NCBI GenBank assembly: GCA_042216675.1
Contig: JBDGTS010000025.1
Coordinates: 1-21,668 of the forward strand
Reading direction: 5' to 3'
Source: Halobacteriaceae archaeon
GTDB lineage: Archaea > Halobacteriota > Halobacteria > Halobacteriales > Halobacteriaceae
DNA length: 21,668 bases
This document shows, piece by piece, positions 4,280-21,668 of this stretch (positions are counted from its first letter, which is position 1; every line of letters starts with the position of its first letter). The notes beneath the pieces were generated by a model that had not been told where the DNA came from, ran no database searches, and saw nothing but the letters and a program-made list of their open reading frames with translations. The position numbers were made by a program, and so were the translations under genes.

Positions 4280-5095
4280 TCACACGACGTGTTCCACGTC
4301 GTAGGAGCCGAGCCACCGGACCCACCCCTCGGCGGAGAGGTCCTCCAACTCCTGAACTGCCTCGTCGGTGCGGGCCTCGTAGCGCCCCGCCTCCACGTCG
4401 ATGTGGAACACGTAGTCGCCGAGTCGCTCGCCGCTGGGGCGGGACTCGACGCGGGTGAGGTTGATGTCGCGGTCCGCGAACGGCTCCAGCAGGCGGAGGA
4501 GCAGCCCCGGGTAGTCCGTGCCCGGGTAGACGACGAAGGTGGACTTGCCGCCGGCCTCCGTGCGCTCCTCGGGGGGTGCGATGACGAAGAAGCGCGTCGA
4601 GTTCGAGGCGCGGTCCTGAATCTCCTCGGCGAGGACCTGCAGGCCGTCGTCGGCGTTGTCCGGGTGGGCGATGGCCGCCACCGTCTCGTCCTCGCGGGCG
4701 AGTTCGACGCCGCGCGCGGTGGAGGCGACGGCCTCCTGTTCGGCGTCGGGGTAGTGCTCGGCGAGGTAGTCCCGGCACTGCGCGAGCGCCTGCGGGTGGC
4801 TCGCGACGGTGTCGAACTCCTCGTGCTGGGCGATGAGCGCGTGGTTGATGGGGGTCACCACCTCGCGCACGATGGCCACGTCGTGGTCGGCGAGGGCGTC
4901 GAGGCTCTCCGTGACGCCGCCCTCGATGCTGTTCTCGATGGGGACGACGCCCCGGTCGAACTCGCCGTCGGCGACGGCGGCGACGATGTCCGTCTTCGTC
5001 TCGCGGAAGCCGATTTCGTCCTCGGGGTCGCCGTCGACGGCCTCGGCGACCCGGTGGGAGTAGCTTCCGGTCGGACCCAGCGTGACGATTCGCAT
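4280..5095 (-). CDS. pheA: Prephenate dehydratase (PDT + ACT domain)
   Basis: LGPTGSYS, VVPIENSIEG, SHPQALAQC, NSTRF catalytic motif, and INLTRVESRP ACT motif. Confidence 0.96.
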   Translation of the reverse strand: MRIVTLGPTGSYSHRVAEAVDGDPEDEIGFRETKTDIVAAVADGEFDRGVVPIENSIEGGVTESLDALADHDVAIVREVVTPINHALIAQHEEFDTVASHPQALAQCRDYLAEHYPDAEQEAVASTARGVELAREDETVAAIAHPDNADDGLQVLAEEIQDRASNSTRFFVIAPPEERTEAGGKSTFVVYPGTDYPGLLLRLLEPFADRDINLTRVESRPSGERLGDYVFHIDVEAGRYEARTDEAVQELEDLSAEGWVRWLGSYDVEHVV

Positions 5096-6508: not shown

Positions 6509-6539
6509 GCCCGGGCCGACGGCGCGCCCCGGCAAGGGT

Positions 6540-7946
6540 TTATCGGGACCAGAATCGCCCGTGGAAGTCGAAGGGCAGGACGTGCGGGAGCGGTGCCCGC
6601 CCCGTCTCGGCGAGCGTCTGTGCGTCGAGGCAGTGCAGCACCGACCGCTCGGCCTCACCGTCGAGAGCCACCACGAGAAGCACGCCGTCGTCCTCGGCCG
6701 TGCCGCCGGGCCGGGGCACGAATACCGGTTCGCCGGGATACGTCTCGCCGTCGGGTCGCCACGTCGTCGCGGTGCCGTTCGGCACGTCCACCTTCACCAC
6801 GCCCGTCGCGAACCCCGCGTCGCCGGGGGACTGGCCGTAGGCGTAGCGGTAGCCCCGCGTGTGCCGGCCCGGAGCGATGCGCGGGAGCGTGATGCCCTCG
6901 TGTCGCCGCTCCACGTCCACGGCGTCGGCGTCGCCGTCGAGGGGCACCCGACAGCGCAGGAGCGACCCGGCGAGGCCCGGCGCGTCGCCGGCCCGGAGCG
7001 CGTCGAGAGAGAGCGCCGAGACTGCACTCGCGTCCTCGAACGCCACGAGGTCCACCACCACGTCGTCGCCGTCCTCGAACGCGCCGACCTGATGGAAGCA
7101 GAAGAACGGCGGCGCGCGCGGCCGGCCGACCACCTCGCCCGTCGCGCGGTCAACGACGGTGAATCGGGTGCCCCGGGCGGGCCGCCACCGGTAGCGCTCG
7201 ATGAACGGCGTCGTGCCGGGCGCGAGGAGGCGGAGCGGATGGACGACCAGCGGCGACTCGACGATGACGACGTGCGACTCCGAGAGCGCGAAACTGTGGA
7301 CGTACGCGGGCCGGTCCACCGGGACCGTCGCCACCTCCGTCCGCGCCGTCTCGCCCGCCGCGCGGCGACGGACGCTGTAGGTGGACTGCCGGCCAAAGCG
7401 CGTCGCCACGTTCCACATCGCGCCCGTCTCCGGGTCGCGTATCGGATGCGAACACCGGTGGTGCGCCGTCAGGTCGTCGTCGAAGGTCCACTCGCCGCGC
7501 GCGTCGAGCGTCGCCGGGTCGAATTCGACGGCGCGCGTGGTTTCGGTCGTCGCGACTGCGCGGTCCCCGACTCGCTGGACGTGGACGTTCGCGTTGTCGG
7601 TGGCGCGGGGCACGAGTGCCGCCCTGAGTCGCTCGCGGAGGCCGTTCCCGGTGGCGCTCGTGCCGAACTGGCCGGCGTACGCACCCTCCCGTGCCCGCTC
7701 GTACGTCTCCGACCGGAGAAAGCGGTTCGTGTACGTCACCGCACCGTCGGCGACGGCGAACCGGCGGAGCATTCCGAGGCCGTCGAACCAGTGGTCGAAG
7801 GATTCGCCGCCCGCCTCGAACGCGCCGGGGCCGTTCCTGACGAGGACGCCGTCGAGCCACGACGGGAGGTCACCCTCGACCGGAAGCCGACGCTCCGACA
7901 CTTCCTCGTCGAGCGTTCGGAAGCCGGCGGCGTAGGGGGCACTCAC
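6540..7946 (-). CDS. Carotenoid cleavage oxygenase / RPE65 family non-heme iron dioxygenase
   Basis: C-terminal 468 aa of track ORF 6540..8768. Motifs EGDLPSWLDGVLVRNGPG, HWFDGLG, four putative Fe-binding His (CSHP, YVHSF, FCFHQV, DFHG), GEPVFVP and EDDG. GTG start at 7946 is inferred. Confidence 0.9.
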   Translation of the reverse strand: MSAPYAAGFRTLDEEVSERRLPVEGDLPSWLDGVLVRNGPGAFEAGGESFDHWFDGLGMLRRFAVADGAVTYTNRFLRSETYERAREGAYAGQFGTSATGNGLRERLRAALVPRATDNANVHVQRVGDRAVATTETTRAVEFDPATLDARGEWTFDDDLTAHHRCSHPIRDPETGAMWNVATRFGRQSTYSVRRRAAGETARTEVATVPVDRPAYVHSFALSESHVVIVESPLVVHPLRLLAPGTTPFIERYRWRPARGTRFTVVDRATGEVVGRPRAPPFFCFHQVGAFEDGDDVVVDLVAFEDASAVSALSLDALRAGDAPGLAGSLLRCRVPLDGDADAVDVERRHEGITLPRIAPGRHTRGYRYAYGQSPGDAGFATGVVKVDVPNGTATTWRPDGETYPGEPVFVPRPGGTAEDDGVLLVVALDGEAERSVLHCLDAQTLAETGRAPLPHVLPFDFHGRFWSR

Positions 7947-19016: not shown

Positions 19017-19748
19017 ATGCAGGACACGCTCAGGGTGTTGGCCGGCGACTGCACGGTGACGTACGAGGACGACGAGGGTACCCGAACTCAGCGGGGGCGC
19101 GTGGTGGTCGCAATCAAACCCGACGGCACGGTGCTCGTTCACGACGCCGACGGCTACCGCCCGGCGGCGTGGCTCACCCGCGCGGACACGGTGGCGGTCA
19201 GCCGCGAGGGAGACGACTTCCGCCTCGTGGCCGGGGACGGCGGAACGCGCCTCGCGGTGGAGAGCCACGAGACGTTCGGACGGGTCCGCTTCCCCGTCTC
19301 CGCCGCTGGGCCGCCCGTCGGCGACTGTCCCGACTGCCGCGCGCCGATGGTCCGCGACGGCGACGAAATCGCGTGCACGGACTGTCGCTCCCGCTACCCG
19401 ATTCCCCGGGACGCCGCGGTGACCGACGAGGCGTGCCCGGACTGTGGCCTGCCGACTGTGCGCGTCGAACGCGGCGCCGAACTGACCGTCTGCGTGGACC
19501 GGCACTGTCAGCCGTTAGCCGAGGCCGTCGGCGAACGATTCGACGGCGAGTGGCCCTGTCCCGACTGCGGACGGGGGATGCGGATTCGCCGAGAGCGCGG
19601 TCTCCGCGCGGTGTGTCCCGACTGCGAGCGCCGCCTCCGGGTGCCAGTGGGCACAGTCGCCGGCGACTGTGACTGTGGACTCCCCCTGTTCGACACGGGC
19701 GACGGGGCGCGCTGTCCGGACCCGGACTGCGCGGCGGCGACACCGTAG
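19017..19748 (+). CDS. NucS/EndoMS N-terminal-like domain fused to multiple C4 zinc ribbons (no nuclease domain)
   Basis: N-terminus GDCTVTYE...VVAIKPDGTVLVHDADGYRPAAW resembles the NucS N-domain. The C-terminus has eight Cys pairs (CPDC, CTDC, CPDC, CVDRHC, CPDC, CPDC, CDC, CPDPDC), similar to topoisomerase I C4 zinc ribbons. Confidence 0.75.
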   Translation: MQDTLRVLAGDCTVTYEDDEGTRTQRGRVVVAIKPDGTVLVHDADGYRPAAWLTRADTVAVSREGDDFRLVAGDGGTRLAVESHETFGRVRFPVSAAGPPVGDCPDCRAPMVRDGDEIACTDCRSRYPIPRDAAVTDEACPDCGLPTVRVERGAELTVCVDRHCQPLAEAVGERFDGEWPCPDCGRGMRIRRERGLRAVCPDCERRLRVPVGTVAGDCDCGLPLFDTGDGARCPDPDCAAATP

Positions 19749-19780
19749 CCTCTTTGCCTGCCCGGCGGCACGTCACCGAC

Positions 19781-20806
19781 ATGGACGGACGGGAACGCGA
19801 CGGGGAAATCGTCGTCGACGGCGACGCGCGTCAGCGCTTCCACGACGCCCGCGGCTACGGGCGTCCGCTCGACGGCGACTCGCTCGCTCTCACCCGCGTC
19901 GAGGCGGCCCACTTGCTGTTCCGCGGGGACCTCGTCTCCGTGGACGGCCGGGGATTCCGCGAGTTCCTCTCCGACGCCGAGGCGGGCTTCGCGCCCCGGT
20001 TTCTCGTCTACAAGGACCTGCGGGACCGCGGCTTCTATCTCTCGCCCGCCCGCGAAGGGTGGGTCACCGACCCCCGCGACGACGTGGACTTCGTCGTCTA
20101 CCCCCGCGGCAAGGGGCCGTGGGACGAGGACGTACTGTACCGGATTCGGGCCGTCGGGGAACGCGCGCCGGTGTCTGCCGCCGGGGTGGGCGACTGCGTC
20201 CTCGCCGTCGTCGACGAGGAGAGCGACATCACCTACCTCCAGACGGCCGAGCCGACGCCAACCGGCGGCACCGAGTACACGCCCCCCAGCGACGTGTCGG
20301 GCACCCTCCTCGACGACCGGGCCGTCCTCTGGGACCCGCCCGAGGACCTGCACCACCGGGGCTTCTACGGCCGACCGCTGGAAGGCAGAGACGAGTCCGC
20401 GGACTCGCCGCTTCAGTTGTCGCTCATCGAGGCCGCCTACCTCGCCGCGGAGGGGGCGCTGTCGCTGGACCTCCGGCGCGTCGTCGAACGCGGGCGGGCC
20501 GTCGAGGGCGACCGCTTCGACCGGCGCCTGCGCACCTACCGAGCGCTCCGGGACGGCGGCCTCGTCCCCAAGACGGGGTTCAAGTTCGGGGCCGACTTCC
20601 GCGTCTACGCCACCGTCGAGACGGTGGACGACCTCGGGCACGCCGAGTTTCTGGTGCGCGTCCTCCCCGCCGACTACGACTTCGAACCGCGGGACTTGGC
20701 GCTCGACGTGCGCCTCGCCCACGGCGTCCGCAAGGAGATGCTGTTCGCGCGCCACGGCGACGGGGAGCGTCCCTCGTGGCTCTCGGTGAGCCGCCTGACA
20801 CCGTAG
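19781..20806 (+). CDS. endA: tRNA-splicing endonuclease (tRNA-intron lyase), tandem-repeat homodimeric type
   Basis: Two repeats (LTRVEAAHL...FLVYKDLRDRG and LSLIEAAYL...YRALRDGG). The catalytic unit carries KTGFKFGADFRVY, GHAEF and RLAHGVRK. ATG at 19781. Confidence 0.95.
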   Translation: MDGRERDGEIVVDGDARQRFHDARGYGRPLDGDSLALTRVEAAHLLFRGDLVSVDGRGFREFLSDAEAGFAPRFLVYKDLRDRGFYLSPAREGWVTDPRDDVDFVVYPRGKGPWDEDVLYRIRAVGERAPVSAAGVGDCVLAVVDEESDITYLQTAEPTPTGGTEYTPPSDVSGTLLDDRAVLWDPPEDLHHRGFYGRPLEGRDESADSPLQLSLIEAAYLAAEGALSLDLRRVVERGRAVEGDRFDRRLRTYRALRDGGLVPKTGFKFGADFRVYATVETVDDLGHAEFLVRVLPADYDFEPRDLALDVRLAHGVRKEMLFARHGDGERPSWLSVSRLTP

Positions 20807-20814
20807 ATGCCAAC

Positions 20815-20822
20815 GATTAAGG
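20815..20822 (+). promoter_or_regulatory. TATA-like box (GATTAAGG) of the putative trpS leader transcript
   Basis: TTAA core 26-29 nt upstream of ATG 20846, the same spacing seen for other genes in the window. No comparable box lies at that distance from the trpS ATG (20993). Confidence 0.55.
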
Positions 20823-20845
20823 CCTTCTCGGCGGAGAGTGAGGAC

Positions 20846-20920
20846 ATGGAGTCCACTTCCGGCTGGCGGTGGCCACACGGTTCGGAAGTGGACAGTGTCG
20901 CGGTCCCGGCGGGGGGCTGA
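20846..20920 (+). CDS. Putative Trp-containing leader peptide (uORF) MESTSGWRWPHGSEVDSVAVPAGG upstream of trpS
   Basis: ATG 20846 to TGA 20918-20920, 24 aa, with TGG codons at 20864-20866 and 20870-20872. It lies directly upstream of trpS, at leaderless distance from a TATA-like box. Confidence 0.6.
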   Translation: MESTSGWRWPHGSEVDSVAVPAGG

Positions 20921-20955
20921 CCCACGCCGCGAACGCGTCGCTCACTCCGCTTTTT
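20851..20955 (+). promoter_or_regulatory. Putative attenuator RNA with mutually exclusive helices and a U-tract
   Basis: GTCCACTTCCG (20851-20861) is the perfect reverse complement of CGGAAGTGGAC (20883-20893). GGAAGTGGA (20884-20892) can alternatively pair with TCCGCTTTT (20946-20954) using three G-U pairs. T5 run at 20951-20955. Confidence 0.55.
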
Positions 20956-20992
20956 CCACGCACCGACTTCGACCACCGCGCCCAGACCACGC

Positions 20993-21668
20993 ATGACACG
21001 CGACACAGACTCAGCCACCGAGGAATCGACGCACACACTGACCGACGGCGGGAGCGAGACGGCCGCCGGCGCCGACGAGGCCACTCTCGACCCGTGGGGG
21101 TCCTCGACTATCGCCGACTACCGCTCGCTGTTCGAGGAGTTCGGCATCGAGGCGTTCGAGGACGTCCTCGACTCGGTGCCGAACCCCCACTATCTGATGC
21201 GGCGGGCCATCATCTTCGGCCACCGCGACTACCGCCGGGTGCTGACGGCGATGCGCGAGGACGAACCGTTCGCCGCGCTCTCCGGCTTCATGCCCACCGG
21301 CGACCCCCATATCGGTCACAAGATGGTGTTCGACGAAATCATCTGGCATCAGGAGCAGGGCGGCGACGCCTACGGCCTCATCGCCGACTTAGAGGCCCAC
21401 AGCGCCCGCGGCCTCTCGTGGGACGAAATCGACGACCACGCCGAGGACTACCTGCTCTCCCTGCTGGCGCTCGGCTTCGACCCCGAGGACGGCGAACTGT
21501 ACCGCCAGTCCGACAACCGCGAGGTGCAGGACCTCGCCTTCGAGTTGGGGTCCGAGGCGAACTTCTCGGAGTTCGAGGCCATCTACGGCTTCGACGGCGA
21601 GACCGAAATCTCGCACATGCAGAGCGTCGTCACGCAGATGGCGGACATCCTCTACCCGCAACTCGACG
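20993..21668 (+). CDS. trpS: Tryptophan--tRNA ligase, 3'-truncated by window edge (absent from the ORF track)
   Basis: Manual translation [11 protein letters not shown]...LDPWGS...[11 protein letters not shown]...[11 protein letters not shown]...[13 protein letters not shown] (HIGH)...IADLEA...YRQS...[11 protein letters not shown] matches archaeal TrpRS. Confidence 0.95.

Follow-up and report, generated by a model that had tools for sequence, protein, structure and literature searches.

A conserved tryptophan-codon leader ahead of haloarchaeal trpS genes: a probable ribosome-mediated attenuator

Why is trpS, the gene for tryptophanyl-tRNA synthetase, set apart from its usual operon partner endA in an archaeon of the family Halobacteriaceae (assembly GCA_042216675.1, contig JBDGTS010000025.1, positions 1 to 21,668)? 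Among 80 haloarchaeal endA loci trpS lay downstream on the same strand in 71, and in 41 of these 71 the two genes overlapped or were at most 15 nucleotides (nt) apart. In the 21,668-nt stretch analysed here, called the window below, the gap between endA and trpS is 186 nt long and holds a whole leader, which explains the split: a short upstream open reading frame (uORF) with two Trp codons, a set of RNA helices and a pyrimidine tract. The element is a conserved, lineage-wide haloarchaeal regulatory leader. In our judgement it probably acts as a ribosome-mediated attenuator through which the availability of charged tRNA-Trp sets the expression of trpS. Its parts in the window are the following.

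19754..20806, + strand: endA (tRNA splicing endonuclease), the upstream gene; Pfam tRNA_int_endo and tRNA_int_endo_N
20815..20821, + strand: TATA-like box GATTAAG by its sequence, about 28 nt 5' of the uORF AUG
20846..20920, + strand: leader uORF of 24 codons, MESTSGWRWPHGSEVDSVAVPAGG and then the stop; ATG at 20846, TGA at 20918-20920
20851..20861, + strand: segment 1, GTCCACTTCCG, 5' arm of helix P1, perfect complement of 20883-20893
20864..20872, + strand: the candidate regulatory Trp codons TGG-CGG-TGG, with TGG at 20864-66 and 20870-72 in the uORF frame
20883..20893, + strand: segment 2, CGGAAGTGGAC, able to pair with segment 1 or alternatively with segment 3
20894..20942, + strand: constant central hairpin, made of P2 and the apical P3 and compatible with both states (RNAalifold, pair counts)
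20940..20947, + strand: GCUCACUC box, nearly invariant in the columns of alignment A1 (see below); its GCU closes P2 and its CACUC is unpaired in either state
20946..20956, + strand: segment 3, the pyrimidine tract TCCGCTTTTTC, which contains T5C (20951-20956)
20943..20992, + strand: 50-nt spacer, rich in C and poor in G (25 C, 8 G), leading to the trpS start
20993..21667, + strand: trpS, T1 paralogue (LDPWGS motif), truncated at the window end; Pfam tRNA-synt_1b

Segments 1 and 2 are exact reverse complements that form a stem of 11 base pairs (bp) around a 21-nt loop with both TGG codons, just as an earlier note on this DNA had read from the letters. The same note had proposed segment 3 as a second partner of segment 2, and this pairing was also found: TCCGCTTTT (20946-20954) pairs with GGAAGTGGA (20884-20892) in nine pairs, three of them G-U, and the minimum-free-energy structure given by RNAfold for 20840-20995 includes it. 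The proposed extension of this helix by GTG:CAC and GCG:CGC was in the wrong register. In the predicted and conserved one, AGUG (20894-97) faces CGCU (20939-42) and CGCG (20899-902) faces CGCG (20934-37), and CAC (20943-45) is unpaired. The apical loop of the central hairpin, GGCUGA, contains the uORF stop (20918-20920), and the T run of the tract occupies 20951-20955 and is followed by C. The C/G ratio of the spacer is 3.0, a value reached by only 0.04% of random 55-nt windows of the genome. No Shine-Dalgarno sequence was found ahead of trpS, either in the window leader or in the spacers of the family described below. The position of the TATA-like box implies a leaderless uORF transcript that would start at the AUG.

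As a single fold the leader is only mildly unusual (z-score -1.78; 9 of 200 shuffles fold as well). It is instead the conservation and the compensatory changes seen across 59 to 78 homologues that show it to be more than a chance structure. Two collections were used. Alignment A1 comprises 59 distinct leaders; 82 candidates from regular expressions were reduced to 60 by a peptide filter, and L316 was then removed as doubtful. Two forms of trpS are distinguished here under labels coined in this analysis, T1 with LDPWGS, as in the window, and T2 with VTPYxVxGDxDY; 14 leaders of A1 precede T1, 38 precede T2 and for 7 the downstream gene was unresolved in the fetched piece. A1 was partly gathered with a pattern requiring TGGNNNTGG, and its Trp counts are therefore not used as evidence. 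The statistics on Trp codons come from an independent pattern, which consisted of segment 2 and the GCTCMCY box only and required no Trp codons; a shorter first pattern gave mostly chance matches in bacteria and was not used.

The Trp-independent pattern was found in 84 of 401 Halobacteria genomes and in 30 of 91 genera, and a control with the reversed pattern gave 7 hits. Outside the order it matched 4 times in 254 genomes; these matches are chance-like and none has the apical motif. From 87 pattern matches, 9 without the apical GGGC..ACCC motif were removed by eye and 78 were analysed. Of these copies 73 precede trpS (23 T1, 48 T2 and 2 T2-like). A uORF was called in 76 of the 78, one of the calls being an obvious mis-call, and two lack an in-frame ATG uORF. 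In the 59-sequence alignment the uORFs are 19-29 codons long. In 62 of the 73 trpS-linked copies the uORF ATG is preceded by an A/T-rich box at -36..-18. The apical loop of the family reads GGGC-N-U-N-ACCC and usually holds the uORF stop codon (UAA or UGA); where an earlier stop arose, e.g. in Halobacterium, it reads UCA in the same frame. It is followed by the nearly invariant GCUCACUC box and then by the pyrimidine tract, and the spacer to the trpS ATG is about 57 nt long with mean C of 0.43 and mean G of 0.19. Only three of the endA-trpS loci examined (L056, L058, L077) carry the homologous leader in their gap. Among the matches listed in a BLAST search of relatives and in the pattern scan, the same element stands 5' of the second trpS paralogue in many genera. 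The trpS of the window is the only one found in its 80%-complete genome assembly, in which the second paralogue was not found. Rfam 15 holds no matching family, T-box included; its sole hit was ar7, on the opposite strand, with 18.8 bits against a gathering score of 60.

The helices themselves are maintained by compensatory exchange. Over the 59 sequences P1, P2 and P3 together are 90.8% paired compared with 38-46% when the arms are slid against each other, and they show 114 double-change cells versus 42.8 +/- 5.1 in shuffles, a number that 0 of 500 shuffles reached. P1 alone is 92.7% paired (35-52% when slid) and has 47 double-change cells against 19.7 in shuffles, again not reached in 500 of them. 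Of its pairs, 13-65 occurs 35 times as GC and 20 times as AU, and 16-62 occurs 38 times as CG and 16 times as UA. P2 is 90.0% and P3 87.1% paired, each with three pairs that show compensatory change (RNAalifold, pair counts). In a partner-swap test the value for helix 1:2 was -4.7 kcal/mol, the native partner being better in 88% of sequences. Thus, of the covariation that had been expected for both pairings, the 1:2 part was obtained and the 2:3 part, treated below, was not. The switches in P1 are non-synonymous on both arms (S-A-P goes with G-A-D-S, and S-T-S with E-V-D-S), which places the constraint on the RNA and not on the peptide.

None of the 73 trpS-linked leaders lacks a TGG in the uORF frame ahead of segment 2; there are two such codons in 45 of them, three in 21 and a single one in 7. 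Segment 2 follows the last of these codons after 11 nt in 32 copies, 14 nt in 31, 17 nt in 5 and 2 nt in 5, so that a spacing of 11, 14 or 17 nt holds in 68 of the 73, and segment 1 makes up nt 6-16 of the predicted transcript. Given the footprint size of a ribosome, this placement supports the proposal that a ribosome stalled on the Trp codons would cover segment 1, not segment 2, which would be left free. The perfect association of TGG codons with trpS copies points to the ribosome as the sensor, and the reading of the leader as a Trp-sensing, ribosome-dependent switch is well supported. No similar Trp uORF was found at the trpCBA and trpE promoters of the window's genome. On its contig C10 (~4770-4806) the leaderless trpC start is preceded by the palindrome TGAACAGACCAGTTCA, beside TTAATG, a possible operator through which a protein might regulate trpCBA.

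When segment 1 was masked in folding calculations, helix 2:3 was favoured, as had been anticipated. In the family the unmasked medians were 0.83 for p(1:2) and 0.01 for p(2:3), and masking up to the last TGG plus 12 nt raised the median p(2:3) to 0.80; in the window the masked value was 0.89. The anatomy and its conservation, the tie to Trp codons, their spacing and the covariation in P1, P2 and P3 are established by the data; ribosome stalling, the change to 2:3 and most of all termination as the output are inferred. Transcription would begin at the uORF AUG, directed by the promoter about 28 nt upstream. With Trp-tRNA scarce, a ribosome would pause on TGG and cover segment 1, and the free segment 2 could then pair, at the base of the central hairpin, with segment 3; the tract would be sequestered and transcription would read through into trpS. 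With Trp-tRNA plentiful, or with the uORF untranslated, segments 1 and 2 would pair, and the pyrimidine tract and the C-rich spacer would remain single-stranded. In the former case the ribosome would stop in the apical loop of the central hairpin; there it may hold the 5' arm of the hairpin, with segments 1 and 2 pairing behind it and the 3' arm, tract and spacer emerging naked. The exposed tract would most likely lead to premature 3'-end formation, in the window via T5C and probably with the assistance of FttA/aCPSF1.

The observations that weigh against this attenuator concern helix 2:3, the output at the tract, transcript data from a relative and copies before other genes, and they are given here together with the alternatives on which they bear. 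Helix 2:3 is 84.5% paired in its fixed register, and 80.1% at slide +1 and 54-70% at the other slides. Shuffles were 83.5% paired, a single double change was seen and covariation was absent. In the partner-swap test the difference was -0.64 kcal/mol with the native partner better in 47%, and shuffling of the tract gave a mean z of -0.55. Nearly all leaders can form this pairing, as a purine-rich segment stands opposite a pyrimidine tract and G-U pairs are tolerated. In the window, moreover, p(2:3) was 0.91 already without masking, helped by extra long-range pairs, so that 2:3 is thermodynamically preferred there even without a ribosome and the switch would have to be kinetic. The local helix energies are -19.0 kcal/mol for P1 versus -6.4 kcal/mol for 2:3, and all nascent prefixes of the window up to 20960 fold P1 and the central hairpin. 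Among other pairings considered, a long-range interaction of the GCUGGC repeats at the Trp codons with GCCAGC-like motifs near the trpS start is present in the minimum-free-energy fold of the window and in some genera; it was rejected at family level (mean z -0.29, 10% with p <=0.05).

The earlier note placed the output in exposure or hiding of a U-tract. The longest T run of the tract is at least 5 in 7 of the 73 copies, 4 in 4, 3 in 23 and at most 2 in 39; in A1 it is T5 or longer in 2 of 59 leaders, and a U-tract is thus not a feature of the family. There is a mechanistic point as well. Intrinsic termination acts while the U-tract sits in the RNA-DNA hybrid, and pairing of the tract could accordingly not block a purely intrinsic event. 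Hiding of the tract would be coherent with factor-dependent termination, since FttA needs accessible U-rich RNA outside the polymerase; it binds such RNA best when this lies at -30 to -36 relative to the RNA 3' end (PMC11616081, available in part). In Haloferax, termination sites between genes carry T stretches that differ in length and end in TC, and a reporter with T5C had 95% of its transcripts terminated; the T5C of the window matches this efficient motif (PMC7237163, available in part). Action through exposure or hiding of the U-tract is plausible for the window and not general.

Further candidates for the output step were tried and rejected. A hairpin of segment 3 with downstream sequence (3:4), acting as terminator or sequestor, is not general: the mean z was 0.03, 5 of 48 leaders fell below -1.5 and none was found in the window, which also counts against a classical attenuator. 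Such a hairpin exists in some lineages only (L301, L327; z = -3.4). L301, L327 and L271, from Halovenus and relatives, have GCTCACTC(G) with its perfect complement (G)AGTGAGC about 25 nt downstream, a lineage-specific 3:4 hairpin. Segment 4 or 2 as an element like a Shine-Dalgarno sequence would stand about 20 nt from the ATG, too far as judged by eye. A bulge-helix-bulge intron for EndA would rest on AGUG:CACU and need a G at column 73, which only about one third of the sequences have; the covarying register is AGUN:NGCU, a plain helix (AU 19, GC 16, CG 5). In-frame fusion of uORF and trpS after such splicing was discarded too, the distances from segment 3 to the ATG not being multiples of three.

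The alternative that survives best, though we regard it as unlikely, is that the two RNA states act post-transcriptionally and govern processing, decay or initiation at the trpS AUG; one form would be a cleavage that yields a trpS mRNA beginning at its own AUG. The missing Shine-Dalgarno sequence fits such a mode, and leaderless poly-Cys small open reading frames (sORFs) of mycobacteria are described as acting at the level of translation (10.1101/834739, available in part). Relevant read data come from Halobacterium salinarum DSM 3754, in which the leader precedes trpS2 (locus L351). RNA run X21, labelled H. salinarum, contributed 111 raw reads with short inserts, all sense, from one condition and a library of unknown type. 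Read depth along the locus was as follows.

L351 before 1019, upstream of the uORF AUG: depth 3-5
L351 1020-1079, uORF: depth about 28
L351 1080-1184, rest of the leader including the tract: depth 11-15, flat
L351 1185-1244, from the trpS2 AUG (1186): depth 35-47, then falling

Depth halves near the uORF stop, where 3' ends were seen at 1074 (3 reads), 1080 (3) and 1086 (4). Among the 111 reads none ended at segment 3, which in this homologue has no T run, and depth did not drop there. Right at the trpS2 AUG depth triples, going from about 14 to 35-47, with no TATA-like sequence 27 nt upstream; the rise may reflect a second start, processing at this point or an artefact of the library. In addition, 21 reads end at 1239 and are possibly duplicates. 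Runs X17, X18 and X20 are assembled contigs that show continuity only; X17 breaks between 1015 and 1027, and one contig covers 1027-1216. Altogether the read data, thin as they are, favour a transcript that begins at the uORF AUG and runs on into trpS2. The rise at the trpS2 AUG and the level depth across segment 3 count in favour of a post-transcriptional mode. The set behind them is small and its library type unknown, however, and in T5C the window has a strong terminator motif. That the trpS start is occluded was rejected: its predicted accessibility did not differ between the two states (0.61 vs 0.59, Wilcoxon p = 0.27, n = 50).

Less probable still is a reading in which P1, P2, P3 and the GCUCACUC box are bound by a factor acting in trans, for instance a protein or small ligand, with the Trp codons secondary or lineage-specific. 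Three copies of the RNA architecture precede genes other than trpS and have no or one Trp codon: one before a gene for an S-adenosylmethionine (SAM)-dependent methyltransferase in the window's own genome and two before GNAT genes in relatives. These copies indicate that the module is not intrinsically tied to tryptophan and lend some weight to a trans-acting factor, as does the near invariance of the unpaired CACUC box and the apical loop. Against it stand the 73 of 73 trpS-linked copies that keep an in-frame TGG at a fixed distance from segment 2. Furthermore, the stop codon (UAA/UGA, with UCA where an earlier stop arose) accounts for most of the conservation seen in the apical loop, and the best Rfam hit, at E = 0.42, lies far below the gathering score.

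The copy in the window's genome lies on contig C42 (~6530-6760, L445), with a TATA-like box, the leaderless uORF MSASVIGWPPTPEADSPVGAVTRASLG, P1, the central hairpin and a GCTCCCTCCGTTTTCC tract. It stands 5' of the gene for a 294-amino-acid SAM-dependent methyltransferase, and its uORF (MSASVIGWPPTPEADS...) has one Trp codon followed by Pro-Pro. In the two relatives (L447, G015:C1, 150-300; L399, G004:C1) the architecture is 5' of a GNAT (Acetyltransf_3) gene; the uORFs, e.g. MSAPNASAGRSRERTVRSAA, are free of Trp codons, and in them segment 2 is read in a different frame.

It is very unlikely that the T run of the window is the TATA box of a proximal trpS promoter to which the hairpins are unrelated. 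The idea draws on loci without the leader, which have a conserved CGAA...TTTTTGCGCG box 30-60 nt 5' of trpS, on the uORF promoters, which resemble GCTTTTTCC and thereby the window's CCGCTTTTTCC, and on the second rise in depth at the H. salinarum trpS2 AUG. In the family, however, the tract is mostly CTCTCC or TTCTCTC and not A/T-rich, and it is conserved as a possible partner of segment 2. The T run of the window is 38-42 nt from the ATG, not about 27, and no CGAA box adjoins it at the right spacing. The box of the leader-less haloarchaeal loci reads GAAGCGAACCCTTTTTGCGCG (or CCGAATGGTTTTTGCGCG) and was seen 30-60 nt before the trpS ATG at L002, L003, L016, L022, L037, L045, L059, L064, L069, L078 and L079 (and L007, L018, L026); it is probably a promoter with B recognition element (BRE) and TATA box. 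Finally, a functional micropeptide with the hairpins as by-products of its coding sequence is hardly credible, since despite the shared M-x-S-[AT]-[PS]...W-R-W...[GE]-[AV]-D-S substitutions at the variable residues are non-synonymous and come in pairs that keep the bases paired (A/T with A/V, P/S with G/E), the C-terminal halves are not conserved and the position of the stop varies.

Some features of the surrounding sequence complete the picture of the locus. At 20804-20809 the endA stop TAG directly abuts an ATG in the uORF frame, with no stop between it and the uORF (MPTIKAFSAESED-MESTSGWRW...). In transcripts reading through from endA, termination-reinitiation at this ATG could yield a leader version of 37 codons. 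In L058 a GTG in the uORF frame overlaps the endA stop. The gene 5' of endA (19017-19748, + strand) encodes a NucS_N-like domain and zinc ribbons and matches the hypothetical first gene of the H. salinarum VNG2211H-endA-trpS1 operon (PMC2710873, available in part). For this operon, which concerns the leader-less paralogue, an internal promoter was described in the part of Koide et al. 2009 available to us.

How does a leader of this kind relate to known systems? Leader-peptide attenuation is a textbook bacterial mechanism that relies on coupled transcription and translation. Archaea have coupling and polarity together with a eukaryote-like polymerase, FttA/aCPSF1 being the factor behind polarity, and we know of no archaeal hairpin terminators. 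Among the papers listed in full-text literature searches, no description of leader-peptide attenuation in archaea was found. We tentatively suggest, with rather less than even confidence, that the present leaders are the first archaeal family of leader-peptide attenuators, in which a leaderless Trp uORF sets the exposure of a tract to the termination machinery, and that the module has been reused before other genes. The family provides a concrete, widespread and genetically tractable test of archaeal attenuation, being present in Halobacterium salinarum, and may offer a compact Trp-responsive part for haloarchaeal genetics.

The classical case is the E. coli trp operon, with a short leader ORF and tandem Trp codons. 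As there, the regulatory codons of the haloarchaeal leader are placed so that a stalled ribosome would mask segment 1, segment 2 has two possible partners and 1:2 is predicted to form first on the nascent RNA; a kinetic choice in the window would likewise resemble bacterial attenuators. Unlike E. coli trp, the haloarchaeal leader lacks the defining 3:4 terminator hairpin. Its ORF would stand at the 5' end of the transcript without a ribosome-binding site and has its stop in the loop of a constant hairpin, its supposed terminator is a bare T or pyrimidine tract read by the archaeal polymerase, possibly with FttA, and the gene under control encodes a synthetase and is not a biosynthetic operon. 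The design with the stop in the loop may be nearer to Rho-type polarity control than to the E. coli trp terminator.

Closer in its target is Streptomyces, for which classical attenuators of trpS and leuS have been predicted, as predictions only; there, too, a leader peptide with Trp codons precedes a tryptophanyl-tRNA synthetase gene that is often one of two paralogues. These attenuators are bacterial, have a hairpin terminator and share no sequence relation with the present leaders (PMC1262725, available in part). The mycobacterial poly-Cys sORFs are alike in having a leaderless sensory first cistron, on whose cognate codons pausing remodels the downstream RNA, whereas the haloarchaeal leader has no Shine-Dalgarno sequence to sequester and leaves start accessibility unchanged (10.1101/834739, as above). 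In the accessible portions of the literature searched, no description of conditional, leader-controlled termination at T stretches or by FttA was found. The known sites of this type are at gene ends and unconditional (PMC7237163, PMC11616081, in the parts available), and most members of the leader family have only T2-T3. The window resembles them in its T5C, and with FttA binding 30-36 nt behind the polymerase there is space for RNA structure to interfere. If the attenuator proposed here is real, the hairpin terminator of bacteria would be replaced by conditional access to naked nascent RNA, and the leader would offer a natural conditional substrate for studies of FttA/aCPSF1 or T-stretch termination.

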